Shown one piece after another: positions 3,716-63,486 of a stretch of DNA of 64,000 nucleotides. Source of the DNA: Patescibacteria group bacterium (GTDB lineage: Bacteria > Patescibacteriota > JAHJAL01); NCBI GenBank assembly GCA_036794765.1, contig DAIRGB010000001.1:11752-75751 (forward strand), read 5' to 3'. A program made the translations under genes and the position numbers. The notes under the pieces were generated by a model. The model worked only from the letters and a program-made list of their open reading frames with translations. It did no database searches and was not told the origin of the DNA. Position 1 is the stretch's first letter; each line of letters opens with the position of its first letter.

Positions 3716-4542
3716 GAACCCGGGAGATGATAATAAATATCAATTGGAAGTTGACTAAATATTTTGAGATAGCTCGTTTGGCTTATGTTAATTCCGGGGC
3801 GTATTTGGCCAATATTTTGGGTAAAAGCCTGACAGTGGTTTTACGAATTTGGATTTTTACACAATTGTATCGAGTAACTTTTGCGGTTGCAGCTGTTGAT
3901 GTGGTGGGAGGTTTGACAGTAGCACAGGTGATTTGGAGTTTGATGTTGGTTCAAAGTTTTGAGACCTCAACCAAACCAATGATTTCCAAATTGATTGATG
4001 AAGAAATAAAATCTGGTTCTTTTGCTTATCAAGTTAATAAACCATATTCGTATATTTTTTATCATTTGGCCGGTTATTTCGGGAGGGTGGCGGCTAATGT
4101 TGGTTCAAATTTATTGATTGGATCGGTGGCGGCTTGGTTTTTAGTGGGAGCTATTGGTTCGAGTTGGTTGGGATTGTTTTTTGGTTTGTTGATTTTAGTA
4201 TTGGGATACGCTTTGGATTTTTTAATTTCATTGAGTATTGGTTTAGTTGCTTTTTGGTGGGAAGATTCAAATACAATTATGTGGATGTATTCTAAAGGCC
4301 GATTTTTATTGGGTGGTGTGATTTTGCCGATTGCTTTGTTTCCGGAGAAGATTCAGAAAATTGCTGAGTTGTTGCCTTTTGCCAATTTGTATTATGCGCC
4401 GGCGAGAATAATGGTAAATTTTGAGTGGAATTTGGTGGAAAAATTTGTGTTAGTTCAATTGGCGTGGATTATTTTTTTTATTATGATTGTTTCAATAATG
4501 TATAGTCGGGGAGTAAAAAATGTGGCAATTAATGGTGGTTAA
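3712..4542 (+). CDS. ABC-2 family transporter permease, designated subtype A.
   Basis: 276-aa protein with about 6 hydrophobic helices. Translationally coupled to the upstream ATPase. Confidence 0.65.
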   Translation: MRTREMIININWKLTKYFEIARLAYVNSGAYLANILGKSLTVVLRIWIFTQLYRVTFAVAAVDVVGGLTVAQVIWSLMLVQSFETSTKPMISKLIDEEIKSGSFAYQVNKPYSYIFYHLAGYFGRVAANVGSNLLIGSVAAWFLVGAIGSSWLGLFFGLLILVLGYALDFLISLSIGLVAFWWEDSNTIMWMYSKGRFLLGGVILPIALFPEKIQKIAELLPFANLYYAPARIMVNFEWNLVEKFVLVQLAWIIFFIMIVSIMYSRGVKNVAINGG

Positions 4543-5323
4543 AAAATATTTCGGTTTGATCTGGGAGGTGGTGAAAACCAATTTGATGACGGCGATGGAA
4601 TATCGGATGAGTTTTATCTTGCAGGTAATTGGTATGATGGCCAATGATTTGTTGATGATTGTTTTGTGGGTGATATTTTTTCAGCGGTTTGGCGAAATCA
4701 ATGGTTGGACTTTCCAAGACACGGTAATGTTGTGGTCGATTACGACGGTAAATTTTGCGATTGTTATGGTGATGTGTCGTGGGGTTTTTGAATTGGCAAA
4801 AACAATTACTCGTGGGGATTTGGATTATTATTTGTCATTTCCGGTGGATACTTTGTGGTATGTAGCGGTGAGCCAAATGTCGGTGCCGGCGGTAGGGGAT
4901 TTGTTTTTTGGGATTGTGTTGTATTTGTTGTATGGCGATTTGAGTCTTTCGGGTATTGCTTTGTATATTTTTTTGTGTGGGGTGACGGCTTGGATATTTT
5001 TTAATTTTGTTGTTTTGACACAATCAATTGCTTTTTTTGTGGGTAATTTTGAAGAAGCGGCGGAACAATGGTATCACTCGTTGCTGGGTTTTACTTTATA
5101 CCCACAATCGGTGTTTCATGGTGTTTTGAAAATGTTGATGTTTACTTTGGTACCGGCGTTTTTTATTGCAACTTTACCGGTGGATCTTATCAATCAGTTT
5201 TCTTGGGAAAAAATATTCTGGTTATTTGGTTTTGGTTTGATTACTTTTTTGATAGCAGTTGGATTATTTAGACGGGGATTGAAAAGATACGAGTCGGGAA
5301 ATTTGATTAGTTTCAAGATGTAA
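4520..5323 (+). CDS. ABC-2 family transporter permease, designated subtype B. It has an N-terminal KYFxxxW amphipathic segment and a C-terminal GLKRYESG motif.
   Basis: 267-aa protein with about 6 transmembrane segments. Overlaps the upstream gene by 23 nt. The same family recurs five times downstream. Confidence 0.65.
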   Translation: MWQLMVVKKYFGLIWEVVKTNLMTAMEYRMSFILQVIGMMANDLLMIVLWVIFFQRFGEINGWTFQDTVMLWSITTVNFAIVMVMCRGVFELAKTITRGDLDYYLSFPVDTLWYVAVSQMSVPAVGDLFFGIVLYLLYGDLSLSGIALYIFLCGVTAWIFFNFVVLTQSIAFFVGNFEEAAEQWYHSLLGFTLYPQSVFHGVLKMLMFTLVPAFFIATLPVDLINQFSWEKIFWLFGFGLITFLIAVGLFRRGLKRYESGNLISFKM

Positions 5324-5384
5324 TTTTTAGATTAAAAAATGATAGAATATAGTTAATTACTGATTGAATTGGTATTGATTTGAG

Positions 5385-5503
5385 TGAAATATTTTTATGT
5401 ATTATTTTTTCTTTTTTTAAGACTCGGGCAATACCTCTAATGAAAAGATTATTTATCTTAAACAAGTTAAAAAAAGAAAAAATAATACATAAAAATATTT
5501 CAC
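5385..5503. repeat. Copy 1 of a long palindromic element. It has perfect 37-nt inverted-repeat arms and a core of about 45 nt. It may be a structured ncRNA, a bidirectional terminator or a MITE-like element.
   Basis: The left arm GTGAAATATTTTTATGTATTATTTTTTCTTTTTTTAA is the exact reverse complement of the right arm ending at 5503. The core contains GACTC, CTAATGA and AACAAG, which are shared with copy 2 at 36824-36940. Confidence 0.55.
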
Positions 5504-5550
5504 CCAAGTTATTCTTTTGATAAAGTTTTTTATAAAAATAAATAAAAATT

Positions 5551-6528
5551 ATGTCGATTATAAAGGTTGAAAACTTGACCAAGGTTTTTGAATTGAATAA
5601 AAAGAAGGAAGGATTTTGGAATTCGGTTAAGGGACTTTTCAAGAGTGAAAAAACTTTGGTGAAGGCAGTAGACAAAGTGTCGTTTGAAATTGAGAAAGGA
5701 GAGTTGGTTGGTTTTTTGGGGCCAAATGGGGCAGGGAAGACCACAACTTTGAAAATGTTGGCGGGAATATTGTATCCGACTAGTGGTAGTGCCAAGATTT
5801 TAGGATATTATCCCTGGGATCATCAAAATGAGTTTAAGTCGCAGATTGCGATGGTGATGGGACAGAAGTCACAATTGTGGTGGGATTTGCCGGCGATGGA
5901 AACTTATTTACTCAATCAAGATATTTATGAAATTCCAGAAAAGACTTTTCGTAAAAATTTGAATTATCTGGCGGATATTTTGGATGTGGGGGAGTTTTTG
6001 GAGGTGCCAGTGCGGAAGTTGTCTTTGGGACAACGTATGAAATGTGAGTTGATTGCGGCTTTACTGCATGATCCGAAAGTGATATTTTTGGATGAGCCGA
6101 CGATCGGATTGGATGTGACTAGTCAAAAAGCGGTGCGAAGTTTTATCAAAGACTACAATCAAAAAAAGAAAGCGACGATTATTTTGACTAGTCACTACAT
6201 GGAAGATATTAAAGAATTGTGCAAGCGGGTGATTATTATCAATCAGGGACAGAAAATATATGATGATACTTATGCCGGATTGGTAAAAAAATATGCTCAA
6301 GAAAAACAGATTGAAATATTTTTTGAAAAACCGGTTTATAAAAGAGATTTTGTGGGATTGGGAAAATTGTTGGAGTTTTCCAACCAAAAAGTTTTATTAT
6401 CGGTTTCAAGAGACAAGGTGTCGGATGTGTTGGGTAAATTGGTCAAGAAATTTGCTATTGATGATATTGATGTTAAAGAGAAGCAAGCGGCGGATATTAT
6501 TGCCGAGATGTTTGCGGAGAATAAATAA
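5551..6528 (+). CDS. ABC transporter ATP-binding protein of the ABC-2 exporter type. It is a paralog of the gene at 2729-3715.
   Basis: Walker A GPNGAGKTTT. Signature LSLGQRMKCE. Walker B IFLDEPTIGLD. H-loop TSHY. Same length class as its paralog (325 aa). Confidence 0.85.
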   Translation: MSIIKVENLTKVFELNKKKEGFWNSVKGLFKSEKTLVKAVDKVSFEIEKGELVGFLGPNGAGKTTTLKMLAGILYPTSGSAKILGYYPWDHQNEFKSQIAMVMGQKSQLWWDLPAMETYLLNQDIYEIPEKTFRKNLNYLADILDVGEFLEVPVRKLSLGQRMKCELIAALLHDPKVIFLDEPTIGLDVTSQKAVRSFIKDYNQKKKATIILTSHYMEDIKELCKRVIIINQGQKIYDDTYAGLVKKYAQEKQIEIFFEKPVYKRDFVGLGKLLEFSNQKVLLSVSRDKVSDVLGKLVKKFAIDDIDVKEKQAADIIAEMFAENK

Positions 6529-6529
6529 T

Positions 6530-6608
6530 ACATTTAAAACTCTTTAAAACTAAAATAGTAACAGTTTGTCAGGGTTTGTAAGTGTTTATAAGAGTTTTTA
6601 AGGGTTTT
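6530..6608. repeat. Phased A-tract repeat spacer made of roughly 10-bp units such as TTTAAAACTC and TTATAAGAGT, present in both orientations.
   Basis: TTTAAAACTCTTTAAAACTA is followed by an inverted GTTTATAAGAGTTTTTAAGGGTTTT. The same word family occurs at 8276-8355, 9163-9252, 10070-10160 and 32620-32742. Confidence 0.5.
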
Positions 6609-7403
6609 ATGCAAAGGTATTTCAAAATATTATGGCGGATTGCGCGGATGTCGTTGGCGACTAGTTTGATGTATAAAACTGATTGGATATTGGGGGTATT
6701 TACAACATTTTCATATTCAGGTTTGCAGATATTTTTTATTGCAATGCTTTTTAGTTCAGGGGGATTGACGAGAATTGTTGGTTTTAGTGTTTGGCAGATG
6801 GTTTTAGTTTTTATGTTTGGGCAGATAATATATTTTTTTGCATTTACTTTTATATTTGAAAATGTTGGTTTGTTTCGTTATAAGGTAATGCAAGGAGAAT
6901 TGGACCATTTTTTACTGAGGCCAATTTCGCCGGTGTTCTTGTTGTCATTTCAAAAATTTGGTTTGGTTGAGGCTTCGGCAATAATTACATATACTTTGGC
7001 GACGTTGATATATTTGTTTATTAGAACGGATGTGTTATTTTCTGAAACGCAATGGTTGACGATTGGTGTGATATTTATTGGTTCTTTGGTTTTGATGTCT
7101 TGTATTTATTGGATCGCCGGGTTGATATTTTTTTATTGGCCAAATTTTTTGGCAATATGGTGGATGTTAAATAATATTAGTGATGTGGCCAAATATCCTC
7201 GTAGGATTTATCCCTCAGCGATGCAATGGTTTTTAATATTTTTTATTCCATTATTTTGTATGGTAAATCCGCTTTATGATGTTATGGATGGATCATTTGA
7301 TTTTTGGCGCGGTTTGGATATTTTTTTAGTAATAACGATGTTTGTTTTAATATATTTAATGATGTGGAAAGATGGTTTGAGACGTTATTCTTCGGCGGCT
7401 TAA
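6609..7403 (+). CDS. ABC-2 family permease of subtype B. The ORF track starts at 6582. The start proposed here is the Met of MQRYFKILWRIARMS, which matches the paralog N-termini.
   Basis: Conserved N-terminus KILWRIARMS...Y and C-terminus GLRRYSSAA. Six hydrophobic helices. Confidence 0.65.
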   Translation: MQRYFKILWRIARMSLATSLMYKTDWILGVFTTFSYSGLQIFFIAMLFSSGGLTRIVGFSVWQMVLVFMFGQIIYFFAFTFIFENVGLFRYKVMQGELDHFLLRPISPVFLLSFQKFGLVEASAIITYTLATLIYLFIRTDVLFSETQWLTIGVIFIGSLVLMSCIYWIAGLIFFYWPNFLAIWWMLNNISDVAKYPRRIYPSAMQWFLIFFIPLFCMVNPLYDVMDGSFDFWRGLDIFLVITMFVLIYLMMWKDGLRRYSSAA

Positions 7404-7482
7404 ATAGTCAATTAACAATGAATAATTAACAATTAAAAATTGATTGTAAAAAGTAATATTTTCCAAATAATTTTTTTAAAAA

Positions 7483-8274
7483 ATGAAAAAATATAAAAGA
7501 CTGTTTAGTAATTTTATTCAGATGAATCTGGCTTATCGCGAGAATTTTTTTGCTGAGTTGGTGATGCGGTCACTGGGGTTTTTTATTATGATTTTTTTGT
7601 GGAAAGCGGTGTATGCACAGAGGACATCGATTCAGGGATTTAGTTTCAATGAATTGCTAACATATTTTTTGATTGTGGAAGTTTTTCGACATTTGTTGGA
7701 AGCGAAAACTTTTTTGGAGATTAAAGAGGGGGTGCAAAAGGGGACGATTGCCAATTACTTATTATTACCGATTGATTCGATTAAAATATATTTTTCCCGG
7801 ACATTGGCGAGGAGTATTTTGTCGTTTGTCTTTTTTATTGTGCCGGTTTTATTTTTGATATATGGGACGAAAATTTTTGTGTTGCCACCGAGTATTTGGT
7901 ATTCGTTGATGACAATCGGGATGGGAATTATTGCGATGTTTATGAGTTTGTTGTTGTACACGATATTTGGCAGTATAGCTTTTTGGACGGTGGAAACGGG
8001 AAATATTATTTGGGCGTTCAATTTTATTGTGATGTTTTTGGCGGGAAAGATGATCCCTTTACAGTTTATGCCTGGTTTAATTAAAACCTTAGTTGGATAT
8101 TCGCCATTGGCGTCATTGTTCAATTTGCCGGCGACTTTGTATTTGGGAAAATTATCTTATACAGAAGCTTTGATCCAATTTGGGGTGCAGATTGGTTGGC
8201 TTTTGATTCTTTATTTGTTACTCAGATGTATTTGGCGAAAAGGGCTTAGGAGAATGGAGTTGGTGGGAGGGTGA
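7483..8274 (+). CDS. ABC-2 family permease of subtype A. Its N-terminus NLAYRENFFAELVM resembles that of the permease at 3712-4542.
   Basis: 263 aa, polytopic. C-terminus GLRRMELVGG. Confidence 0.6.
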   Translation: MKKYKRLFSNFIQMNLAYRENFFAELVMRSLGFFIMIFLWKAVYAQRTSIQGFSFNELLTYFLIVEVFRHLLEAKTFLEIKEGVQKGTIANYLLLPIDSIKIYFSRTLARSILSFVFFIVPVLFLIYGTKIFVLPPSIWYSLMTIGMGIIAMFMSLLLYTIFGSIAFWTVETGNIIWAFNFIVMFLAGKMIPLQFMPGLIKTLVGYSPLASLFNLPATLYLGKLSYTEALIQFGVQIGWLLILYLLLRCIWRKGLRRMELVGG

Positions 8275-8275
8275 A

Positions 8276-8355
8276 AAACTTATCAAACTTATCAAACATA
8301 GCAAACAAAAACCCTTATAAACTCTTTAAAACACTTTTAAACTCTTAGAAACTAT
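8276..8355. repeat. Phased roughly 10-bp A-tract repeat spacer.
   Basis: ATCAAAC, AGCAAAC, CTTATAAACT, CTTTAAAACA, CTTTTAAACT and CTTAGAAACT follow one another at about 10-bp spacing. Confidence 0.5.
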
Positions 8356-8364
8356 CATTATGAT

Positions 8365-9159
8365 ATGCAAAAGTATGGAAAAATTTTGTGGCGGATAATC
8401 AGAATGGCGGTGATGCGGGATATGATGTATAGGATAGATGTTTTTATAAGCTCGCCCGCGGCTTTTTTTTATATTTTGATAAATATTTTTTGGATAAAAT
8501 ATTTATTTGGGGCGATCGGAGATCAAGAAATTGCCGGGTATAACAATTGGGATTTTTATCTGCTGTTGTTTACTGGACAAATTGGGGCGGCGTTGTTTTT
8601 TGCCTTTATACAAAAGAGTTCCAATGCTGTTCGAGAGCAAATATTGAAAGGAGATTTGGATTATTTTTTGATAAAACCGGTTGCAAGTTGGTTTTTGATA
8701 AGTTTTCAGGACATTAATTTCCGAGTGTTTGTTTCTATTATTGGATATTTGGTAATTGGGGTTCCTTGGATTATTGTTGCCGGGAATTATCATTTTAATA
8801 TTTGGCAGTGGATAAACATTGTTTTGATATTGGTTTTTTCATTTGTTCTATCATTTGCGGTGCGATGGATAGTAACTTTGTTAAGTTTTTTTTGGGATAG
8901 ATTTGATGCCGGGATATTTTTTATTGAGTCGTTGGAAAATGTAAGTTCCTTTCCAAAATCAATTTTTCCCGGGAGTTTGCAATTCATTTTTTTGTATATA
9001 TTGCCGATGGCAATGATAAATGCACCGATTTTTCAGGTAATTGACTATTCATGGAATATTAGTTTGTTGATTGAGATGATTGGGGTGATGATCATTTTTC
9101 TTCTATTGCTGGGGTTGATGTGGAGGTTTTCATTAAAGAAATATGGGTCGGCGGGGTGA
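8365..9159 (+). CDS. ABC-2 family permease of subtype B.
   Basis: N-terminus KILWRIIRMAVMRDMMY. C-terminus KKYGSAG. Polytopic. Confidence 0.65.
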   Translation: MQKYGKILWRIIRMAVMRDMMYRIDVFISSPAAFFYILINIFWIKYLFGAIGDQEIAGYNNWDFYLLLFTGQIGAALFFAFIQKSSNAVREQILKGDLDYFLIKPVASWFLISFQDINFRVFVSIIGYLVIGVPWIIVAGNYHFNIWQWINIVLILVFSFVLSFAVRWIVTLLSFFWDRFDAGIFFIESLENVSSFPKSIFPGSLQFIFLYILPMAMINAPIFQVIDYSWNISLLIEMIGVMIIFLLLLGLMWRFSLKKYGSAG

Positions 9160-9162
9160 GAG

Positions 9163-9252
9163 AAGCAAAAACTTAACAAACATATCAAACATATCAAACG
9201 TATTAAACACTTAGAAACGCTTTTAAACGCTTAAAAACACTTTGAAACTGTA
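9163..9252. repeat. Phased roughly 10-bp A-tract repeat spacer.
   Basis: AACATATCAAACATATCAAACGTATTAAACACTTAGAAACGCTTTTAAACGCTTAAAAACACTTTGAAACTG. It can be aligned with the spacers at 8276 and 10070. Confidence 0.5.
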
Positions 9253-9269
9253 ATATTTAAAATAAATTA

Positions 9270-10064
9270 ATGAAAAGTTATTGGAAAATATTTTGGCGGG
9301 TGGCGAAGATGTCGTGGATGGTGACGGCCAGTTATAAAATTGATCTATTGGTGGGTTATACTACATCATTTATTTATTTTTTGTCACACTTGGGAATGGT
9401 ATATATTTTATTTCAGATATCTGAAAATAAGACAATTGCTGGTTTTGGTCAATTTGAGTTTTATTTTATTTTCGGTTTGGTTGAAGTATTATGGTTTATT
9501 TGTTTTGGTTTCTTTTATATCAATTCAAATAAATTGATTGATCAAATAGTTGAAGGCAAAATTGATTTTCTTTTGTTAAAGCCAAAAAATAATTTATTTT
9601 TAGTGATTTTTCAAGAAATAAACTTGGACGATTTATTGGCGATGTTTTTTTATCTTTTTTTGACTTTGGGATTGGTGAATTACATGGATTGTTGGGAATG
9701 GTTGATCAATAATTTGTGGTCGATAATAATGGTAGAAATCTGTTCAATAATTTTACTGTTTCTTTTAATTTGGATTGGTTCGTTTATCAATTTTTATTGG
9801 CCGCGTTTTATGGTGTTTAGATTGATGGTGATACACAATTCTGATATTTCACAGTTTCCCAGGCAAATATACCCTAGGTGGATGCAAGTAATATTGATGT
9901 GGGTTTTTCCATTACTTTTGATGACTTCGCCAGTTTTTGATTTGTTTTCCGGGGGTTTAAATGGGTGGTTTTGGTTGAATGTTTTTCTAGAGATTGTTGC
10001 CTTGTCATTGATTTTCATTTTAATGTGGCGGGATGGTATTCGGAGATATTGTTCGGCGGGGTGA
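9270..10064 (+). CDS. ABC-2 family permease of subtype B.
   Basis: N-terminus KIFWRVAKMSWMVTASY. C-terminus IRRYCSAG. Polytopic. Confidence 0.65.
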   Translation: MKSYWKIFWRVAKMSWMVTASYKIDLLVGYTTSFIYFLSHLGMVYILFQISENKTIAGFGQFEFYFIFGLVEVLWFICFGFFYINSNKLIDQIVEGKIDFLLLKPKNNLFLVIFQEINLDDLLAMFFYLFLTLGLVNYMDCWEWLINNLWSIIMVEICSIILLFLLIWIGSFINFYWPRFMVFRLMVIHNSDISQFPRQIYPRWMQVILMWVFPLLLMTSPVFDLFSGGLNGWFWLNVFLEIVALSLIFILMWRDGIRRYCSAG

Positions 10065-10069
10065 GGGAG

Positions 10070-10160
10070 TGAAAAACATAACAAATTTATCAAACATATC
10101 AAACTTAGCAAACACTTAGAAACTCTTTTAAACTCTTTGAAACGCTTTTAAACTGTAATT
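10070..10160. repeat. Phased roughly 10-bp A-tract repeat spacer.
   Basis: ACAAATTTATCAAACATATCAAACTTAGCAAACACTTAGAAACTCTTTTAAACTCTTTGAAACGCTTTTAAACTG. Confidence 0.5.
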
Positions 10161-10168
10161 ATTAAAAA

Positions 10169-10966
10169 TTGATGAAGAAATATTTTAAAATATTTTGGCG
10201 GGTGGGGAGGATGAGTTTGATGCGGGATATGATGTATCCGGCTGATTTTTGGACGGGGAGTTTTTCGGGAATTGTGTTTATGGCTTCGCAAATGTTGTTG
10301 ATCTGGTTTTTATTTAAAACCAGTCAGTCGGAGACTATTGCGGGATATGACATGTGGCAGATTTATTTTGTATATGGAGTTTATAATTTTGTTGTTGGTT
10401 TGGCTTATGTCTTTTTGTTGAATAATTCTTGGTCGTTCACGAGTGGAATAATTGCTGGCTTGCTTGATCTGGATTTGATTAAACCGATAAATAGTTTTGT
10501 GGCATTGTATATGAAAGAATATGAAATGGTGGTGGAGGTGATTAGTGTATTGGTTTCGTTTTTCTTGAGTTTTTGGTTGGCGATAAGCGGCAGAGTTGAA
10601 TTGAATTGGACTCAGGTTGTTTTGATATTGGTGGTAATGTTACAATCTTTTTGCCTGTATTGTGTATTGTATATTATTAGTTCAGTAATTGAACTTTTTG
10701 TTAGCCGATTTTCGGTTTTAAGGTTTATGATGCATGAATTTGATGTGGTGACAAGTTATCCTCGGCGAATGTATCCGTTGGCGATGCGGTATATTTTGTT
10801 GTTTGTCTGGCCGTTTTTTATGATTGTTAGTCCGATTTATGATATTTTTGATCAAACGTTTGATTTTGAGAAAATATTTATTTGGTCGGGAGTGAACATT
10901 ATTTTTTTATTGATATTAATCTTGATGTGGACAAGTGGTTTGAAAAAATATTGTTCGGCGGGATAG
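10169..10966 (+). CDS. ABC-2 family permease of subtype B.
   Basis: N-terminus KIFWRVGRMSLMRDMMY. C-terminus LKKYCSAG. Polytopic. Confidence 0.65.
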   Translation: MMKKYFKIFWRVGRMSLMRDMMYPADFWTGSFSGIVFMASQMLLIWFLFKTSQSETIAGYDMWQIYFVYGVYNFVVGLAYVFLLNNSWSFTSGIIAGLLDLDLIKPINSFVALYMKEYEMVVEVISVLVSFFLSFWLAISGRVELNWTQVVLILVVMLQSFCLYCVLYIISSVIELFVSRFSVLRFMMHEFDVVTSYPRRMYPLAMRYILLFVWPFFMIVSPIYDIFDQTFDFEKIFIWSGVNIIFLLILILMWTSGLKKYCSAG

Positions 10967-11669: not shown

Positions 11670-13115
11670 ATGAAAAGATCGGAAGTATTTTTTAATATTT
11701 CTTTGGTTTTTATTGATATTGCCATGATTTTGGTTGGCTTTGCTTTGGCCTACGAGATTAGATTGTATGCTTCAGATTTTGTGCCGGTGAAATGGGTTTT
11801 GCCTTTGAATGAATATTTGAGGTATATTATTTTGTTTATTCCGGTTTGGTTGGGAGTTTTTGCAGTGATGGGTTTGTATGCTTTTCGGGGGGTGGGGAGT
11901 TTTGTGTCGGAAATGTTGAAAGTAGTTTTGGCGGTATCGGCGACGATTAGTTTGATGATTTTGATTATCTTTTTTAATCGAGATCAATTTTTTTCACGTT
12001 TAATAATTATCTATGCATGGTTGTTTGTGACGGCAATGGTGGTGGTTGGTAGATTGGTTTTGCGGGCAGGTCAAAAATTTTTGTATCGATATGGGGTTGG
12101 AGTGCGAAGGGTGTTGATTGTGGGAGCAAATACTGTGGCGTGCGAATTAATTGAAGTGTTGGCAAAAAATAGTGATGGTTGGGAGTTGGTAGGAGTGATG
12201 GACGAAAAAAAACAACAAGGAGAAAAAGTATTGGGGAAATATCGGGTTTTGGGAGGGAGAGATAAGTTAGAAAAAATTAGAAAAAGATATCATATTGATG
12301 AAATATGGTTGGCTGAGGCAAAAAAGACAGATGAGGAAATGATAGATTTGATCAGTTTTTGTCAAAATTATGATCTGACTTTTCGTTTTGTTCCCAGTAT
12401 ATTGGAAGTAGTAAGTGCCAATGTGGAAACCCAGGCGGTAGCGGGTATGCCTTTGATTGCCTTGAAAGATACTGCTTTGGAGGGTTGGGGAAGAATAATT
12501 AAAAGAGTATTGGATATAATATTTTCTGTGGTAGTTTTGGTTTTTTTGTGGCCAGTTTTGTTATTGATTGCGTTGGCGGTAAAGTTGGATTCGCCCGGTC
12601 CAGTTTTTTATAAATCTGTCAGGGTGGGAAGAAAAGGAAGACTGTTTACTTTGTATAAATTTCGGTCAATGAAAGTAGAATATAGTATTGGTGAAGAGTA
12701 TGGTGGAAAAGAGGCGGAAAAGTATCGGGAAGAATTAAAGAAAAAAAATATAGCTGATGGTCCGATGTTCAAAGTTGAGGATGATCCACGAATAACCAGG
12801 GTAGGGAGCTTTATTCGCAAAACGAGATTAGATGAATTGGCTCAGATAATAAATGTGATGCGAGGGGAAATGAGTTGGATTGGTCCTAGGCCGCCATTGC
12901 CAGATGAGGTTAAACAGTATGAATCTCATCATTTGAAGAGGTTGGCAATTAAAAGTGGGATTACTGGTCCGTGGCAGGTGACGGGACGTCATGATTTGAC
13001 TTTTGACGAGATTGTGAAGTTGGACACGTATTATATTGAACATTGGTCTTTGGGCTTGGATTTGCAAATATTTTTTAAGACGATTTGGTTGATGTTGACG
13101 AAGAAGGGAGCTTAG
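11670..13115 (+). CDS. Polyprenyl-phosphate glycosyl-1-phosphate transferase of the bacterial sugar transferase family (WbaP/EpsL-like).
   Basis: Four or five N-terminal transmembrane segments. The C-terminal domain contains KFRSM...DGPMFKVEDDPRITRVGSFIRKTRLDELAQIINVMRGEMSWIGPRP. Confidence 0.8.
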   Translation: MKRSEVFFNISLVFIDIAMILVGFALAYEIRLYASDFVPVKWVLPLNEYLRYIILFIPVWLGVFAVMGLYAFRGVGSFVSEMLKVVLAVSATISLMILIIFFNRDQFFSRLIIIYAWLFVTAMVVVGRLVLRAGQKFLYRYGVGVRRVLIVGANTVACELIEVLAKNSDGWELVGVMDEKKQQGEKVLGKYRVLGGRDKLEKIRKRYHIDEIWLAEAKKTDEEMIDLISFCQNYDLTFRFVPSILEVVSANVETQAVAGMPLIALKDTALEGWGRIIKRVLDIIFSVVVLVFLWPVLLLIALAVKLDSPGPVFYKSVRVGRKGRLFTLYKFRSMKVEYSIGEEYGGKEAEKYREELKKKNIADGPMFKVEDDPRITRVGSFIRKTRLDELAQIINVMRGEMSWIGPRPPLPDEVKQYESHHLKRLAIKSGITGPWQVTGRHDLTFDEIVKLDTYYIEHWSLGLDLQIFFKTIWLMLTKKGA

Positions 13116-32619: not shown

Positions 32620-32742
32620 ACAAACCCTTATAAACTCTTTAAAACTCTTTTAAACACTTAAAAACTATGGGAATTATGAGAGTGTTTATTGTAAAGTTTG
32701 TAAGAGTATATAAGGGTTTCTAAGTGTTTATAAGAGTTTTGT
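32620..32742. repeat. Imperfectly palindromic block of the 10-bp phased A-tract repeat family. It lies upstream of tRNA-Asp.
   Basis: AAACCCTTATAAACTCTTTAAAACTCTTTTAAACACTTAAAAACT is followed by the same word set in inverted orientation, GTTTATAAGAGTTTT etc. Confidence 0.5.
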
Positions 32743-35527: not shown

Positions 35528-36805
35528 ATGAAGATTGATTACAAATTGACGAAGTTGAAAAATGGGATGCGGGTGTTGTTGGTTCCAAATAAACATGTGG
35601 AGTCGGTGAATGTTTCGATTTTTTTCCGGGTTGGTTCTCGATGCGAGGATGAGAATATTGCCGGGATTTCGCATTTTTTGGAACATATGTTTTTTAAGGG
35701 AACCAAAAAAAGACCGAAGGCAAAATTTATTTCGGAGGCGATTGATAGTGTGGGTGGGGAGATGAATGCGTTTACGAGTTATGAGTATACCGGGTATTGG
35801 ATAAAAGTGGCCAAACAACATACTGATTTGGCGATTGATGTTTTGTCGGATATGATTATTGATTCCAAATTTTTGCAAAAGGAATTGGATCGGGAACGAA
35901 ATGTTATTAAAGAAGAAATGAAGATGTATGAGGATAATCCGGATTATTATATCTGGCGGGTGTGGAACAAGGTGTTGTATGGGGAGCAGGGGTTGGGACG
36001 GGAAATTGCCGGGACACGGGAGGCTTTGGACAATATTAATCATCCGGAGATGATTGAATATCGAAACAATTATTATTCGGTAGCCAATGGGTTGTTGGTA
36101 GTGGTGGGAAACTTTGTGGAAACTTCTTTGATGACGACTTTGAATAAATATTGGAATAAAGTCAGTAAGGGCATGAGATCGGAGTATCAATTGGCAAGTG
36201 ACTGTCAGCCAAAACCGCAGGTTGAATTGTTGACCAAAGATATTCAGCAGGCCAATATGTGCGTTGGAGTGAGGTCATATCGTTCTTTTCATCCTGATCA
36301 CTTTGTAGTCAATTTGATTTCGGTGATTTTGGGACGAGGGATGAGTTCACGATTATTTTTGCGGGTGCGAGAAAAACATGGGTTAGTTTATACGATTCGG
36401 GCCATGGCGGACAATTATGTCGATGTGGGAAATTTGGTTGTAAAAACCGGTTGTGATGCCAACAAAGCCGAACAGGCCTTGAAGATGATTTTGGAGGAGT
36501 TCAAAAAATTGACCAAGGAAAAAGTTTTGAAAAAAGAATTGGATAAAGCCAAAGAGTATTGGAAAGGGACTTTGATTTTGTCTTTGGAGGATTTGGAGAG
36601 TGTTGGTGGTATGGTAGGGATGCAGGAATTGTTGTTTGATAAAGTGGTTACTCCGGATCAGATGATCAAGGCGATTGATAAAGTGACGGCGGAAGATATT
36701 ATGAGAGTGGCAAAGGATATGTTTAAACCGGAAAAATTGAATCTGGCGGTGATCGGTCCTTTTAAAAATAGCAAGAAATTTCAGACGATTGTTTCTAATT
36801 TTTAG
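35528..36805 (+). CDS. M16 family (pitrilysin/insulinase-like) zinc peptidase.
   Basis: Inverted zinc motif HFLEHMFFKGT and downstream E residues. Two-domain M16 architecture. Confidence 0.8.
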   Translation: MKIDYKLTKLKNGMRVLLVPNKHVESVNVSIFFRVGSRCEDENIAGISHFLEHMFFKGTKKRPKAKFISEAIDSVGGEMNAFTSYEYTGYWIKVAKQHTDLAIDVLSDMIIDSKFLQKELDRERNVIKEEMKMYEDNPDYYIWRVWNKVLYGEQGLGREIAGTREALDNINHPEMIEYRNNYYSVANGLLVVVGNFVETSLMTTLNKYWNKVSKGMRSEYQLASDCQPKPQVELLTKDIQQANMCVGVRSYRSFHPDHFVVNLISVILGRGMSSRLFLRVREKHGLVYTIRAMADNYVDVGNLVVKTGCDANKAEQALKMILEEFKKLTKEKVLKKELDKAKEYWKGTLILSLEDLESVGGMVGMQELLFDKVVTPDQMIKAIDKVTAEDIMRVAKDMFKPEKLNLAVIGPFKNSKKFQTIVSNF

Positions 36806-36823
36806 GTAGTGTTTGTATTTATC

Positions 36824-36940
36824 GTGGAATATCCGTATAACTTTTTTTCTTTTTTTAAGACTCAGACATTTTTTCTAATGATTTTGACTATTGAACTCAA
36901 ACAAGTTAAAAAAAGAAAAAAAGTTATACGGATATTTCAC
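36824..36940. repeat. Copy 2 of the palindromic element, with 34-nt arms.
   Basis: GTGGAATATCCGTATAACTTTTTTTCTTTTTTTAA with its reverse complement at 36906-36940 (one mismatch). Core GACTCAGACA...CTAATGA...AACAAG. Confidence 0.55.
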
Positions 36941-36970
36941 TTGGTTAAATTATATTTATAGGAGCGTAAT

Positions 36971-37465
36971 ATGATTGAGCGAACTTTGGTGGCTTTGAAG
37001 CCGGATGCTGTGCAACGGGGTTTGATTGGTGAAGTGATTCATCGATTTGAACGAGCCGGTTTAAAAATTGTGGCAATGAAGATGAAGTGGGTGGATGAGG
37101 AATTTGCCAAAAAACATTATACTGAGGACATTTCGATTAGGAGAGGGGAACATGTTCGTCGTTATTTGGTGGAGTTTTTGTTGGTTGGACCGGTGGTGGC
37201 GATGGTTTTGGAGGGGGTGGATGCGATTGAAGTGGTGCGAAAGATGGTTGGTGGGACGGAACCAAAGATGGCGGTGCCGGGGACTATACGAGGTGATTTT
37301 TCGCATGTGAGTTATGACTATTGTGATTCCAAAGAAATGGTGGTAAAAAATATCATTCATGCTTCTTCGGATGCTAAAGACGCTAAACATGAGATTGATT
37401 TGTGGTTTGACAAGAGCGAGATTCATGATTACAAATCAGTTCATGATCAGCATATTTTTGATTGA
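36971..37465 (+). CDS. ndk: Nucleoside diphosphate kinase.
   Basis: ERTLVALKPDAVQRGLIGEVIHRFE. Active-site His context NIIHASSD. Confidence 0.85.
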   Translation: MIERTLVALKPDAVQRGLIGEVIHRFERAGLKIVAMKMKWVDEEFAKKHYTEDISIRRGEHVRRYLVEFLLVGPVVAMVLEGVDAIEVVRKMVGGTEPKMAVPGTIRGDFSHVSYDYCDSKEMVVKNIIHASSDAKDAKHEIDLWFDKSEIHDYKSVHDQHIFD

Positions 37466-37483
37466 CAAGTTTGTTTGTTGATT

Positions 37484-37516
37484 AAAAAAACCACTGATTT
37501 GACAGTGGTTTTTTTA
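37484..37516. terminator. Bidirectional rho-independent terminator between ndk and the convergent lipoprotein gene.
   Basis: AAAAAAACCACTG, loop ATTTGA, then CAGTGGTTTTTTT. Confidence 0.6.
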
Positions 37517-37545
37517 ATAATTTGTTATTTTTATTAAATGGGTTG

Positions 37546-54999: not shown

Positions 55000-55074
55000 A
55001 CAATTAACAATGAATAGAGACATTTTTTCTGTAAATTATTAATTTTCTTTGTTAATTGTTTATTTTGTGTGTGT

Positions 55075-55145
55075 TCCGGGATCGTCTAATGGTAGGACAG
55101 CGGCCTCTGAAGTCGTCAATCTTGGTTCGAATCCAAGTCCCGGAG
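55075..55145 (+). tRNA. tRNA-Gln with anticodon CTG.
   Basis: Acceptor stem TCCGGGA pairs with TCCCGGA. Anticodon loop CTCTGAA. T-arm CTTGGTTCGAATCCAAG. Discriminator G. Confidence 0.75.
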
Positions 55146-56726
55146 TTTTCCTGAACGAAGCATCTTGTGTGAATGGCTATTGACCATATTGGTGCTTGAT
55201 GTCACCTGTTCGAATTTGTTTTTGGTATTTTCGGATAAAATTTCTATATTCGAATTTCGGAGTATATTGGTTAGCTTGGCTAACATTTCAAATGGTTTAG
55301 ATAGCTTTACAGATAGAATTCCGTTTTCAATTTTCATTTCATCAAAGAGGACTTTAAGTAGTTCTCTTTTGTTGTCTGGTAATCCATTTTCAAATATTAT
55401 ATTTGCCTGTTGAGTCAATTCATAAATTGAAATGCCAAGCTCGTAATAAGCATTTTCTTTTCTGGTTAGTCTATCAATGGCTCTGGAAATGTCTTCTTTT
55501 TCTTTCGTGAATTTTTGGTTTAATTCTTTGTAAGTATTATCAGAAATAAGACCATCTAATTTGTCTATGTATAAAGTGTCTAGTCTTTGAGAAAGTTTAC
55601 TGTATTGGATGTGAAGTTGTTTGGCTGATGCCTCCCTAGTGACTATTTCTTCTTTGTGGTCTTCTTTTAATGACATTCTAATCCATTCATCAATTTTAGG
55701 ACTGGTTATTTTGAATCTATCGGTAATATCTGAGACTTGTTCTTCGATTTCGGCTTGTTTTGCCCATGTTTTTTGTTGGCAATTATTTTTGTGATTGCAG
55801 TGACCATATACTATCCCTTTTTGGATTTCCCAAGTAATGGTCCCATTGCATTCTTTGCAGGTCATTAATTTTTGGAAGACATAATGGTGTTTATTGTATT
55901 TTGGAGTTGTTTTGGAAGTAAGGTTTAGTTGGACTTTTTCAAATACTTCTTCTGTGACAATTGGCTCATGTTTTCCAGGATATATTTCATTTTTCCAAAG
56001 GATTTTTCCACTATAGAATGGTCTGGTAAGGATATTATGAAGCGTGCTTTTTGCCATTCTTTTACCTTTAATTGTTCTGAGTCCTTGTTTAAACATGATT
56101 TGACTTAGTTTCTTTAAAGAGTAATTTCCTGTCGCATACAGTTCAAATAACTGTTTGATTAGAGGTGCAATATTTTCATCAATAACTTGGATTTTGTGAC
56201 CTTTTTCTCCTATAGTCTTGTATCCCATTGGTGCTTTATTTGGTAGCCAGCCTTGAGATATTTTTTCTTTAAAACCTTTTTGCACTTCTTCGGACAAATT
56301 ATTGGTGTAAAATCGGGCAATGGCGACTTTCATGTCCCAAACTAGATTTTCGTGTGCTTTGGTATTTTTATTGAGAACAAAAGATTCTTTGACAAAATGG
56401 ACCTCGTGTTTGGGATTGCTTTGGACCCAGTCATTGATAATTGCTGCGTCTTTAAGGTTTCTGGTTAGTCTGTCTATCTTTTCGCATACTATAACTGAAA
56501 TTTGGTTTTGTTTTAGATATTTTAGCATTTCTTGAAAGGTGTCTCGGATTTTTTTGCCACTGGCTGATTCAGAAATACTGAATATTTTGTTTATTCGGAA
56601 TTTATTTTGAGAATAGTCTTTTAATAGTTTTTCTTGAGCTGGCAAGGAATAACCTGTTTCTTCTTGGTCCTTAGATGACACTCGGCAATATAAGACGGAT
56701 TTTGGCATATTGTTGATAGTTTTCAT
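55116..56726 (-). CDS. Large serine recombinase (phage-integrase type).
   Basis: Resolvase catalytic domain VLYCRVSSKDQ...VIVCEKIDRLTRN. Recombinase domain. Zinc ribbon CKECNGT...CNHKNNC. C-terminal coiled coil. The 3' end overlaps tRNA-Gln. Confidence 0.8.
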   Translation of the reverse strand: MKTINNMPKSVLYCRVSSKDQEETGYSLPAQEKLLKDYSQNKFRINKIFSISESASGKKIRDTFQEMLKYLKQNQISVIVCEKIDRLTRNLKDAAIINDWVQSNPKHEVHFVKESFVLNKNTKAHENLVWDMKVAIARFYTNNLSEEVQKGFKEKISQGWLPNKAPMGYKTIGEKGHKIQVIDENIAPLIKQLFELYATGNYSLKKLSQIMFKQGLRTIKGKRMAKSTLHNILTRPFYSGKILWKNEIYPGKHEPIVTEEVFEKVQLNLTSKTTPKYNKHHYVFQKLMTCKECNGTITWEIQKGIVYGHCNHKNNCQQKTWAKQAEIEEQVSDITDRFKITSPKIDEWIRMSLKEDHKEEIVTREASAKQLHIQYSKLSQRLDTLYIDKLDGLISDNTYKELNQKFTKEKEDISRAIDRLTRKENAYYELGISIYELTQQANIIFENGLPDNKRELLKVLFDEMKIENGILSVKLSKPFEMLAKLTNILRNSNIEILSENTKNKFEQVTSSTNMVNSHSHKMLRSGKLRDLDSNQD

Positions 56727-56743
56727 TTTAAATGCTCCTAGAA

Positions 56744-57127
56744 TTAATAAAATAAAGAATTATTGTATTTAGTATGTATTTTTATTTTTGGATATTTTTT
56801 AAGGCAATTATTCAATATATGGGTGTCATAGCGGTTGCGTGTTAATCGAGATATATCTGAGCATAGCAGATGATTAATATTTAATTTATTCATTGTTTGG
56901 AATAATTCTGGAATTATTTTATCTTTTGGCAAGCCTGTAAATTTTAAAGAAGAGACAATTTGAAATTTTTGACCTAAATAATCAATTAAATTCTTTTCTT
57001 GAAGGGATAGTTTTTGTAGATTATCATTTTGTTTATGACAGGCGGAAAACGAGAAACAAATTGCTTGGTTATTCATAATGGTGTTTATTAGATAAATAAA
57101 AAAGGGGCAACCTACCTTGTTGCCCAA
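56744..57127 (-). pseudogene. Degenerate or truncated serine recombinase N-terminal domain fragment.
   Basis: 127-aa ORF with LLCSDISRLTRN, which matches the resolvase DRLxR motif. It lacks the RVS-type catalytic Ser context. Confidence 0.35.
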
Positions 57128-57341
57128 TCAATTAAACCACTAGAAGAGGATTAATTGTGGAAGTAGATTGCCCCGTTTTTGTCCACAAAGAACATAAAAG
57201 ACGAGTTCTCTTCCATGGTTTAATTAATTGATTGAGCAACACTTATATTGTATCAAGTAAAATGCAGGTGATACAATGTTGTTGTGATTCGAGTGTGGCA
57301 AAATTTCTTATCTATAATAGAACGAAATTTTTGCGACACTC

Positions 57342-58352
57342 TTATTTGTGTTCAGGCGCAGGATATTCTTCTGTAAATCGAGGGTGAGTATAGTCTAGTT
57401 CTGGGTAGAGGCAGTTTTTTTCTCCTCTGGTTTCGATAATAATTTTTTCGGAGATTAACTCCTTGTAGGCAGTATTGAAGGTTTTTTCTCCAATATCATA
57501 TCCGTATTCTTTGATTTTGCCGTAAAGTTGGGTTTTGTTCATTTTTTCAGTGTTTTTCTGGAGAATTTCGACGATTGCATTTTTAGAATCAATTTTTTTG
57601 CTGGTCTTGATTTCGTTGTAGCCAGCAAATTCAAAGTCTAGAAAATCCTCATTATTTTTTATTAGCAGTTTGAAACTATTAAGCTCTTGCTGTTGTCTGA
57701 GTTTAGTTTGTTCAATCTCTAAACTGTCTTCGACTTTCGTTACAGCCAAGTGACAATCTATGGATGCTAGAATATCGGATGAACCTCGCATGTTTTGGGA
57801 GTTGGAGGATTTATTGTGCATATTCTGTTTGCGATGGTGGTGGGTCACTATAACAGTGATACCATGTTTCGTCATTTTCTTTAGATAAGCAAATACCTCG
57901 GCCATCTTTTTTGCATCGTTTTCATCGGCGTTGTGTATTCTTACCAATGAATCGAAGATGACTACTTTGTAATCGTTTTCCAAACAATACTCGATTAAGG
58001 TTTGGCATACATTTTCTATTTTTATACCAAGTATTGAAGTGACGGATATTGGTAGTTCAGGGGATGTCTGTAGTTTGACGAATCTATCATGGAGCAGTCT
58101 TTCACCATTTTCTTCGTCTATAATTAGGATTTTGGATTGTGCGGTGCGAAATTGTCCAAAGACAATGTCTCCAATTGCTATTTTTTTGGCCATGTATAAG
58201 AATAGCCATGTTTTAAAACAACTCGGTTGGCCGGAGATAACTGTAATGCCATTAGTTGGTATTAGGTATTCTACAACCCAATTTAATGGTGGGAATTCCT
58301 TGGTTAATAGCTCTTTTAATGGAATAACGTGCTTGCTAAAAATGTTTGTCAT
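57342..58352 (-). CDS. RecA-fold ATPase (RepA/AAA_25-like) with a C-terminal winged-helix domain. It is a candidate replication protein of the element.
   Basis: Deviant Walker A SGQPSCFKT. Walker B KVVIFDSLVRIH. Conserved TVIVTHHHRK. Confidence 0.5.
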   Translation of the reverse strand: MTNIFSKHVIPLKELLTKEFPPLNWVVEYLIPTNGITVISGQPSCFKTWLFLYMAKKIAIGDIVFGQFRTAQSKILIIDEENGERLLHDRFVKLQTSPELPISVTSILGIKIENVCQTLIEYCLENDYKVVIFDSLVRIHNADENDAKKMAEVFAYLKKMTKHGITVIVTHHHRKQNMHNKSSNSQNMRGSSDILASIDCHLAVTKVEDSLEIEQTKLRQQQELNSFKLLIKNNEDFLDFEFAGYNEIKTSKKIDSKNAIVEILQKNTEKMNKTQLYGKIKEYGYDIGEKTFNTAYKELISEKIIIETRGEKNCLYPELDYTHPRFTEEYPAPEHK

Positions 58353-59987: not shown

Positions 59988-60253
59988 GTGGTGAAATATT
60001 TGATAAATTTTGCTAATATAAAGCCGTAAGTAACAATTCAAGTGCCTAAACTTTGTATTTTATACAAGGCATGGCAGTAAAAACTCAGATACATAAAGAT
60101 GGTCCTTTTGACCAGCTTACTTGTATCTGAGTATATATCCGAAAGGATATATGGTGGACCCGAAAGGGAAAGCCGAGCTGTGTTGGAAGGACCGTTTTTG
60201 GAATGATTTCAACATAGCAGAATAATTTTCTGTTTATTTTTTAAATATATGGT

Positions 60254-61800: not shown

Positions 61801-63486
61801 ATGGCAAAAAAAGATTATACAAACTGGGACAGAAAAGACTTAATTAAAGAGATTGAGCAACTTCGCAAACGCAAGAAATATGGGCTTGTTTGGGAAGAAA
61901 AGCCGGAAAATGTTGTTGAGCAATGCAAAACCGAATTACCAGTTTTAGAAGAAGTCAAAGACAAAGAAATAATTACCGATCCCGACAAACCAGTAAATTT
62001 ATTGATTGAGGGCGACAATTATCATGCTCTTTCTGTCTTGAATTACACTCACAAAGGTAAAATTGATGTTATTTATATTGATCCGCCATATAACACAGGG
62101 GCAAGAGATTGGAAATATAACAATGATTATGTTGATATAAATGATCAGTGGAGACATAGCAAATGGTTATCGTTCATGGAAAAAAGATTAAAGCTTGCCA
62201 AAAATCTGCTCAAAAAAAATGGTGTTTTAATTTGTACGATTGATAAAAATGAGCAAGCTAATCTCGGGGTTTTGTTGCAAGAAATTTTTAATGGAAAAGA
62301 AATAGTATGTGTTACGATCATCCATAATCCTGGCGGTATTCAAGGTAAAAACTTTTCTCATACAAACGAATTTGCTTATTTTATTCATCCTCAAAATGGT
62401 AATTTTATATCAACTATTGCTAGAGATGATGTACCACCGACAGCTTTTCGAGATTGGGGAAAAGAAAGTTCAAAAAGAGAAGCGGCGAAAACTTGTTTTT
62501 ATCCAATTTTAATTAAAGACGAATCTATAGTTGGATTTGGAGGAGTTTCTTTAGATGATTTTCACCCAAAAGGCTCAAACATATTACGAAAAGACGGAAT
62601 TATTGAGGTTTACCCCGTTGATCAAAAAGGCGTTGAACGAAAATGGCGTTTTGGTCGAGAAACCGTTGAGGATATTAAGGAAGAGCTGATTTGCAAAAAG
62701 GTAAAAGGTAAATATTCAATATTCAGAGAGAAAAAAGATTATCGATGGAAAACTGTTTGGACTGAAACAAAATACAATGCAAATGTATATGGAACAAAAT
62801 TACTTAACAATATTATTGAAGCAAAATTTCCTTATCCCAAATCATTATATGCAGTAATGGATTGCGTAAAGGCAGTTATACACGATAAACAAAATTCAAT
62901 AGTGTTAGATTTTTTTGCTGGATCTGGTACGACAGGTCACGCTGTTTTAGAACTTAACAAAACAGATAACGGAAATCGAAAATTTATTTTGTGTACAAAC
63001 AATGAAGACAACAACGGCGAAGGAACAAAAATAGCAGACGACATGTGCTATCCAAGAATAGAAAAAGTAATAAATGGCTATAAAGGTTTGCTAGACGGGA
63101 AAAAATACCAAGGCTTAAATGGAAATTTAAAATACTTTCGCACAACATTTGTATTTGCAGACCCAACAGATAAAAACAAAATTGCTCTAACCGAAAAAGC
63201 AATGGAAATGCTTTGTGTAAAAGAGGATACTTTTGGAGAAGTAAAATCAACAAAGCAATACAAGATTTTCAGAAACAAGAAGCGATATACTGGCATTGTT
63301 TTTGATCATCAAGCGATAAATGATTTTAAAAAAGAAATTGCTAAGATTGACGGCAAATTCAGTCTTTATATTTTCTCGCTTGGCGACGATACTTTTGATG
63401 AGGAGTTTGAAGATATGAAGAAGAAAGTAAAATTATCACCCATACCAGAGGCGATACTTCGAGTTTATCGCAGAATATTTAAATAA
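61801..63486 (+). CDS. mod: Type III restriction-modification Mod subunit, a beta-class N6-adenine or N4-cytosine DNA methyltransferase.
   Basis: Motif IV IDVIYIDPPYNTG precedes motif I DFFAGSGTTGHAV. Confidence 0.75.
   Translation: MAKKDYTNWDRKDLIKEIEQLRKRKKYGLVWEEKPENVVEQCKTELPVLEEVKDKEIITDPDKPVNLLIEGDNYHALSVLNYTHKGKIDVIYIDPPYNTGARDWKYNNDYVDINDQWRHSKWLSFMEKRLKLAKNLLKKNGVLICTIDKNEQANLGVLLQEIFNGKEIVCVTIIHNPGGIQGKNFSHTNEFAYFIHPQNGNFISTIARDDVPPTAFRDWGKESSKREAAKTCFYPILIKDESIVGFGGVSLDDFHPKGSNILRKDGIIEVYPVDQKGVERKWRFGRETVEDIKEELICKKVKGKYSIFREKKDYRWKTVWTETKYNANVYGTKLLNNIIEAKFPYPKSLYAVMDCVKAVIHDKQNSIVLDFFAGSGTTGHAVLELNKTDNGNRKFILCTNNEDNNGEGTKIADDMCYPRIEKVINGYKGLLDGKKYQGLNGNLKYFRTTFVFADPTDKNKIALTEKAMEMLCVKEDTFGEVKSTKQYKIFRNKKRYTGIVFDHQAINDFKKEIAKIDGKFSLYIFSLGDDTFDEEFEDMKKKVKLSPIPEAILRVYRRIFK

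Follow-up and report, generated by a model that had tools for sequence, protein, structure and literature searches.

We analysed a 64-kb stretch of DNA from a member of the Patescibacteria (CPR), which is called the window in what follows. Inspection of the sequence, backed by a script, delineated a 117-nt near-perfect palindrome at 36824-36940, upstream of ndk, and a related palindrome was present about the border of two ABC-transporter gene sets at 5384-5503. We refer to the palindrome upstream of ndk as copy 2 and to the other as copy 1. The features on which the analysis rests are the following.

5330-5348, + strand: conserved block GATTAAAAAATGATAGAAT upstream of copy 1, extended -10-like (TGnTAGAAT)
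5384-5503, + strand: copy 1, 120 nt, between an ABC-2 permease gene and an ABC ATPase gene
35528-36805, + strand: gene for an M16 (insulinase/pitrilysin-type) peptidase, upstream of copy 2, with its stop codon TAG at 36803-36805
36807-36823, + strand: left flank of copy 2, within the DNA that is extra relative to the tight M16-ndk junction of relatives
36824-36940, + strand: copy 2, whole element, with a 35-bp stem, a 47-nt core and a predicted folding energy (dG) of -45.6 kcal/mol, z = -8.6
36824-36858, + strand: 5' arm of copy 2, consisting of GTGGAATAT (conserved terminus), CCGTATAAC (variable block) and T7CT7AA (conserved inner stem)
36859-36905, + strand: core of copy 2, 47 nt, GACTC ... 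CTAATGA ... AAACAAG, 70% identical to the core of copy 1
36906-36940, + strand: 3' arm of copy 2, consisting of TTA7GA7, GTTATACGG and ATATTTCAC
36941-36962, + strand: right flank, from the hairpin to the ribosome-binding site (RBS) of ndk, AGGAG at 36960-36964
36971-37465, + strand: ndk, nucleoside diphosphate kinase, the downstream gene (Pfam NDK, 1.5e-42)
37481-37518, + strand: canonical intrinsic terminator after ndk, a 16-bp stem with a T-run

Structure of the two copies

The full arms of copy 2 are GTGGAATATCCGTATAACTTTTTTTCTTTTTTTAA (5') and TTAAAAAAAGAAAAAAAGTTATACGGATATTTCAC (3'), and the script paired them over 35 bp, with 34 Watson-Crick pairs and a single G·T at position 4. Arms and core had been written out in the first-pass annotation, and on re-reading they matched exactly; its estimate of about 30 nt between the element and the ndk start was likewise borne out, as 30 nt separate the element end from the ATG at 36971. 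The exact ndk product is already on record as a called gene. The palindrome had also been taken for a second copy of an element found elsewhere in the window, and it is indeed a paralog of 5384-5503, 74% identical overall. Only the start proposed for copy 1 (5385) had to be moved, the true start lying one base earlier, at 5384. By script, copy 1 forms a perfect 37-bp stem (5384-5420 with 5467-5503) around a 46-nt core (5421-5466).

The copies have a common layout, in which a conserved outer terminus (GTGRAATAT / ATATTTCAC) is followed by a variable block inside the arm (TTTTATGTATTA in copy 1, CCGTATAAC in copy 2) and by an inner stem that is identical in both (T6-7 C T7 AA / TT A7 G A6-7). 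The edges of the cores (GACTC ... AAACAAG) are also identical, and the CTAATGA motif is common to the two. Register-aware alignment of the stems revealed differences by five substitutions and two single-base indels, and all seven were mirrored on the opposite arm. The sole unmirrored stem change between the copies is the A>G that makes the G·T, and the stems of both copies together thus contain one non-Watson-Crick pair, a G·U, in 72. Three-way RNAalifold served as a cross-check of double-sided changes only, as MAFFT misregisters the sequence of L037, a relative described below. The copies have a 21-mer and a 23-mer in common, TTTTTTCTTTTTTTAAGACTC and AAACAAGTTAAAAAAAGAAAAAA, and the 64-kb window contains exactly two occurrences of each, against 0.01 expected. 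Within the window there are two copies only and no solo arms elsewhere, and lone GTGAAATAT 9-mers elsewhere in it are at chance frequency.

Copy 2 is no assembly artefact. Its sequence was identical over 196 nt in two independent ENA assemblies, and four Logan contigs from other runs begin at 36907, which is the first 31-mer containing the G·T position; they break there because a k=31 de Bruijn graph must break at such a palindrome. The Logan contigs L004-L007, L040-L042 and L044 all end or start inside palindrome arms. Perfect palindromes break de Bruijn assemblies at predictable points, so that metagenome-assembled genomes of CPR bacteria fragment at such loci.

The two sites in relatives

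The copy 2 site was compared in seven relatives, all of them distant (M16 58-69% identical). The gap between M16 and the downstream gene was 9 nt in L028/29 and L035/36, 4 nt in L034, 18 nt in L030 and 31 nt in L033, and in L031/32 it was 94 nt of GC-rich DNA unrelated to the element; the M16-ndk gap in the window is 165 nt. In L028 the ndk RBS follows immediately on the M16 stop codon (TAAATAGGAGTCAAATATG). The gene order M16 - ndk - reverse gene - GT4 - L25 was full in L028/29 and L031/32, and partial in L030 and L035. Copy 2 was missing at the M16-ndk site in all seven relatives examined, and the comparison of sequences indicates that it is extra DNA gained in this lineage and inserted into the operon junction. 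The placement of the insertion leaves both the M16 stop and the ndk RBS intact.

The best flanking direct repeats were a 7-mer, TATTTAT, at copy 2 and a 5-mer at copy 1, in AT-rich flanks of a window where repeats of at least 7 occur at about 16% of random positions. Comparison with L028 gave a possible TAGG...TAGG duplication at copy 2, which is at chance level and comes from distant relatives that offer no exact boundaries. Neither candidate for a target-site duplication (TAGG or TATTTAT) is supported, both being at chance level. The bases flanking the termini read C-GTG...CAC-T and A-GTG...CAC-C. A flank-homology alignment test for extension of the repeat unit was powerless, even orthologous flanks giving p of about 0.5.

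One of the relatives has an inverted duplication of its own. The JGI contig L032 carries, at 5010-5440 between genes for an S26 peptidase and LytR, a 347-nt inverted duplication with perfect 23-bp arms and repeated segments, and the near-identical ENA contig L031 (5355-5440) is without it; the difference is either strain variation or an assembly artefact. The L032 hairpin at 5010-5119 was rejected, being a local inverted duplication unrelated to the element.

The relatives available at the copy 1 site are closer, with ABC-2 permeases 84-97% identical in amino acids, and the site was occupied in all of them. L037/38/39, from three sources, carry a 113-nt imperfect hairpin with termini GTAAAATATTTTT ... 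AAAAATATTTCAC and loop motif CTCTAAATG, which is without the inner-stem and core-edge blocks of the window; the L037 ortholog folds much more weakly (z -3.4). L040-42 were identical to the window over their visible part, and these contigs break inside the arm. L044 reads GTGAAATATTTTT-GCGCCGC-TTTTAT, sharing the terminus but with a third variable block, and its contig ends 26 nt into the arm, the position at which a break would be expected for a perfect palindrome including TTGG/CCAA, assuming a window-like 3' flank. This distribution indicates that the copy in the spacer between the two ABC-transporter gene sets is the older one, inherited in position across related lineages.

The permease stop is followed by an extended -10-like block (GATAAAAAGTGATAA), 35 nt before the copy 1 hairpin, that was kept in all relatives at the copy 1 site, L037 and L044 included. 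The block, GAT(T)AAAAA(A/G)TGATA(G/A)..., is found at 5330-5348 in the window, at about 10800-10818 in L037 and at about 4195-4213 in L044. Since it is conserved there and absent at copy 2, it is part of the ABC locus and not of the repeat. The block points to a separate promoter for the second ABC gene set, with copy 1 in the 5' leader.

Nucleotide identity to the window was 81-94% for the permease gene, 83% for the ATPase gene and 66-70% for the 60-nt spacer upstream of the copy 1 hairpin. The copy 1 hairpin itself was about 56% identical to its L037 ortholog, and nothing but the termini, ACTC and the loop motif was conserved. The within-genome paralogs, at 74%, are thus closer to each other than are positional orthologs. 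This pattern marks a repeat family, be it through turnover, re-seeding or gene conversion, and does not mark a classical conserved structured RNA. That the termini and the loop motif were kept across lineages while the spacer diverged suggests some host-level function beyond selfish DNA.

The ABC locus has further features. The window at 2729-10966 contains tandem paralogous ABC units, with an ATPase of 328 aa and permeases of 276 and 267 aa before the hairpin, and an ATPase of 325 aa and permeases of 273, 263, 264, 264 and 265 aa after it. The hairpin-adjacent permease gene is 94% identical to L040 in nucleotides, compared with 99.1% over the whole 5.4-kb overlap, which hints at local recombination near it. 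In L037 the ATPase-permease gap measures 198 nt, compared with 53 nt in the window, and a 123-nt imperfect hairpin lies in this gap at 11994-12116 (in L038 also, from about 7438). It has many G·U pairs and predicted energies of -48.4 kcal/mol in the sense strand and -37.4 in the antisense strand, values which suggest a sense-strand RNA structure; nothing in Rfam matched it, and in sequence it does not resemble the palindromic element.

Folding, transcription and the ndk gene

Both copies are predicted to form hairpins with a stability far above chance. RNA folding of copy 1 gave -49.7 kcal/mol (z = -13.0), the values for copy 2 being those listed above, and for each copy none of 200 shuffles was equally stable. 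The element also folded strongly as single-stranded DNA, with z = -8.8 for copy 2 and -11.0 for copy 1, and its two strands folded with equal strength.

Since the hairpin is very stable and intergenic, and since copy 1 stands where two paralogous ABC units meet, the element could be imagined as an intrinsic terminator or attenuator of unusual form, dividing M16 from ndk at one site and one ABC gene set from the next at the other. We consider this very unlikely. A terminator scan found none at copy 1 or copy 2, whereas the same scan recovered the terminator at 37481-37518; the stem of the element is AT-rich, with a loop of 46-47 nt and no U-tract after it, and relatives express ndk from a tight M16 junction without any hairpin. 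The terminator at 37481-37518 marks the end of the M16-ndk unit and shows the form that terminators take in this genome.

Promoter scanning found no consensus within the element and nothing common to the two copies. Copy 2 is very probably co-transcribed with M16-ndk, because it lies in what is a tight operon junction in relatives. For both copies, co-transcription would also follow from their position, as the flanking genes are on the same strand and no terminator precedes the element. In the predicted centroid fold of the extended transcript, the hairpin takes in neither the RBS nor the AUG of ndk, and the AUG of the ABC ATPase is likewise outside the copy 1 hairpin. Occlusion of the ndk RBS was rejected, as it is absent from the centroid and appears only in a low-frequency extension of the minimum free energy structure. 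An influence of copy 2 on ndk expression is plausible. Because the RBS and AUG are outside the hairpin and the element has no terminator or promoter consensus, any such effect would come about via mRNA processing or stability, and not via occlusion of the start site.

The loop also contains an ATG (CTAATGA) from which a small lysine-rich peptide might be translated, in open reading frames of 26, 27 and 17 codons in copy 1, copy 2 and L037, respectively. We give this reading next to no credence and rejected it for its frame inconsistency between the copies, whose open frames cross the conserved block AAACAAGTTAAAAAAAG at different offsets (20 and 21). In addition, the products are dissimilar, no Shine-Dalgarno sequence precedes the ATG, and the open frames follow from the composition of T-runs and A-runs.

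The strong folding of the single-stranded DNA bears on another possibility, namely that the palindrome works as a cruciform-prone or looped DNA site, bound at its inverted termini (GTGAAATAT / ATATTTCAC) by a dimeric protein such as a regulator, a recombinase or a nucleoid protein. The termini are the part of the element that is best conserved across lineages, and A-tract/T-tract inner stems such as those found here are typical of bent DNA. However, the half-sites would be about 100 bp apart in duplex DNA, the asymmetric core of 46-47 nt carries conserved motifs of its own, and the solo GTGAAATAT 9-mers in the window are at chance level. There is also no adjacent gene for a regulator or recombinase; the only recombinase among the scanned ORFs of the window is a large serine recombinase beside tRNA-Gln, 18 kb from the element. 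A DNA-level binding site is therefore, in our estimate, decidedly unlikely.

The recombinase belongs to a region of separate interest. Its gene (Resolvase + Recombinase, 536 aa; 55116-56726, minus strand) adjoins or overlaps tRNA-Gln (55074-55146), and after it come a 127-aa ORF and an AAA_25 protein, in a region that extends from 55074 to 58352 and on to about 63486. Farther along are a LOOT RNA (RF03000, 72.7 bits, 60043-60160) and an N6/N4 DNA methylase gene (61801-63486), and the stretch from 55074 to about 63486 looks like an integrated mobile element at tRNA-Gln. LOOT RNA was considered as the identity of the palindrome and rejected, since the LOOT RNA at 60043-60160 is unrelated to it. 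The window also contains a second, unrelated repeat family of 10-nt-periodic units (AAAACTCTTATAAACACTTA and variants), with 6 matches against 0.04 expected. These are located at 6579-6608, 8308-8347 and 32622-32740, upstream of two ABC-2 permease genes and tRNA-Asp, and the set at tRNA-Asp takes the form of interleaved inverted repeats (A-B...A'-B'). The units may be phased sites of protein binding.

Origin, upkeep and known palindromic repeats

Known families and possible partners were searched for in several ways. Rfam at gathering threshold returned no family at copy 1, copy 2 or the hairpins of the relatives. Models of plant miRNA precursors (Rfam, E-value mode) scored 14-41 bits against thresholds of 80-230 and were dismissed as generic long-hairpin noise. 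A retron msr-msd ncRNA was rejected as well, the neighbours being M16 peptidase/NDK or ABC permease/ATPase, with no reverse transcriptase in the scanned window ORFs; so were TIGR arrays, which are tandem arrays with an architecture unlike that of the element. Scans for exact motifs (TTTAAGACTC N30-55 AAACAAGTTAAA and variants), which would miss diverged relatives, gave chance matches only and no palindromes in GTDB representative genomes, JGI metagenomes and IMG/VR. A BLAST search of plasmid and phage records was equally negative. The Pfam-scanned ORFs, which make up most of the 54 ORFs called in the window, include no transposase, RAYT or reverse transcriptase. A literature search found no palindromic or MITE-like repeat described for Patescibacteria (CPR).

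The reading that we favour, with a probability of roughly one half, is that the palindrome is a small, low-copy foldback intergenic repeat restricted to one Patescibacteria lineage, similar in kind to MITE-like repeats, among them Correia, ERIC and Rickettsia palindromic elements (RPE), with the ndk copy arising later, the arms kept by a DNA-level process and the hairpin co-transcribed. The ndk copy would have arisen when the element was later duplicated or transposed into the operon junction between M16 and ndk. During replication, intrastrand template switching would copy a change on one arm to the other arm. Such switching makes imperfect inverted repeats perfect or more nearly so, and repeats of this type are hotspots of it (PMC7202029). 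Template switching fits the near-exclusive Watson-Crick pairing, the mirrored indels and the lack of strand asymmetry, and the complementarity of the arms may thus be kept mainly by a DNA-level process, with possible help from selection for the hairpin. Both copies would be transcribed within mRNA and form a hairpin of 35-37 bp dsRNA, a putative substrate of RNase III or barrier to exonucleases.

The element had been called covarying in the first-pass annotation. The term stands as a description, in that 7/7 stem differences are mirrored, and falls if it implies a selected RNA structure, because template switching copies substitutions and indels from arm to arm and the two strands fold equally. 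The element is a clean natural case in which mirrored "covariation" in a palindrome cannot, on its own, be read as selection for RNA structure.

The perfect pairing would be explained as well by RNA selection as by template-switch correction of DNA. We also considered a functional structured RNA under RNA-level selection, that is, a cis-acting leader, an intercistronic processing or stability element, or an sRNA freed from the long hairpin, with UCUAA(A)UG in the loop as a binding site and with mirrored changes that are truly compensatory. This is the main rival of the favoured reading and, though less probable, has some real weight. Compensation of all seven stem differences, with a lone exception that is G·U on the sense strand, would be expected of it, and so would termini and a loop motif, CTCTAA(A)TG, that are conserved across lineages at the ABC locus amid a diverging spacer. 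The conserved extended -10-like block upstream of copy 1 is in line with it too, and the second, unrelated hairpin in the L037 operon, with its sense-strand G·U bias, suggests that the lineage has RNA hairpins in these spacers. Yet the folding energy of the element is without strand asymmetry, the pairs are almost all Watson-Crick, and exact mirroring of indels is not needed by RNA selection. Moreover, the interior of the element changes faster than the adjacent spacer, and the hairpin of the L037 ortholog is much weaker. The genes downstream of the two copies are unrelated, none of the seven relatives examined has copy 2, and Rfam has no match. The readings as selfish repeat and as RNA element are compatible, as a repeat of selfish origin can be co-opted.

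A rather unlikely variant is that the host maintains the element as a lineage-specific hairpin module, which would then not be selfish DNA in decay. A protein or RNase would recognise the conserved termini and loop motif (UCUAA(A)UG), and active, palindrome-specific copying would keep the self-correcting stem perfect, with the middle block free to vary. Such a module might uncouple expression within operons or yield small RNAs from the stem, and might seed copies without a conventional transposase or target duplication.

On the favoured reading of a foldback repeat, the element is of interest for the biology of its hosts. Patescibacteria (CPR) genomes are small and compact, and the persistence of a repeat in operon junctions implies that insertions of long hairpins are tolerated and may be used. 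If RNase III processes the hairpin, it would provide a simple handle on the post-transcriptional control of ndk and of the ABC transporter in an uncultured organism.

Set against the features of MITEs, the element is small (117-120 nt) and non-coding, the loop ORFs being frame-inconsistent and without Shine-Dalgarno sequences, and it has terminal inverted repeats in the form of arms of 35 and 37 bp that are 97-100% complementary. Two copies are present in 64 kb, and the site of copy 2 is empty in the seven distant relatives. No autonomous partner was present among the scanned ORFs of the window. That the element is a MITE is thus unproven, since no target duplication has support and a transposase was not found among those ORFs.

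REP/BIME sequences are extragenic palindromes in transcribed spacers that stabilise upstream mRNA; REPs are imperfect palindromes of 20-40 nt that occur in hundreds of copies and have a Y1 (RAYT) transposase as their partner. The present element, by contrast, has 117-120 nt, arms of 35-37 bp and two copies, with no RAYT in the scanned window ORFs. RPEs are palindromic, measure about 100-150 bp, inhabit a small, AT-rich, reduced genome, are inherited vertically at orthologous sites and decay over time. The imperfect L037 ortholog looks like such decay. RPEs form several multi-copy families and are known for in-frame insertion into protein-coding genes, whereas both copies of the element are intergenic. 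They are among the families listed in PMC10969869.

The ERIC/IRU repeats of Enterobacteria, palindromes of ~127 bp and imperfect, are similar in size to the element and are likewise intergenic in transcribed regions (PMC10969869). They occupy orthologous positions in relatives, show presence or absence elsewhere, vary in copy number and have effects on mRNA stability (PMC10969869). The element has no sequence relationship to ERIC, and its interior turns over faster than the flanking spacer. ERIC palindromes, imperfect as they are, are conserved in sequence across genera.

Correia elements have arms of about 26 bp with a TA target duplication and occur in hundreds of copies. Our element differs in its near-perfect arms of 35-37 bp, in having no supported duplication and in the two copies seen; in place of the 26-bp inverted repeat and TA, it has termini GTGRAATAT/ATATTTCAC and flanking bases other than TA. 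There is no sequence similarity and the host phylum is another one, and the mirrored variable block inside the arm is a feature of the element and not of Correia. In architecture, the Correia elements of Neisseria (CREE/NEMIS) are likewise about 100-155 bp long, with long inverted-repeat arms, a conserved core and an intergenic or intra-operon position (PMC2649163, PMC10969869). Their hairpins are co-transcribed, RNase III binds or cleaves them, and the expression of neighbouring genes is altered (PMC2649163, PMC10969869). By analogy, Correia elements offer the best functional model for the palindrome upstream of ndk.
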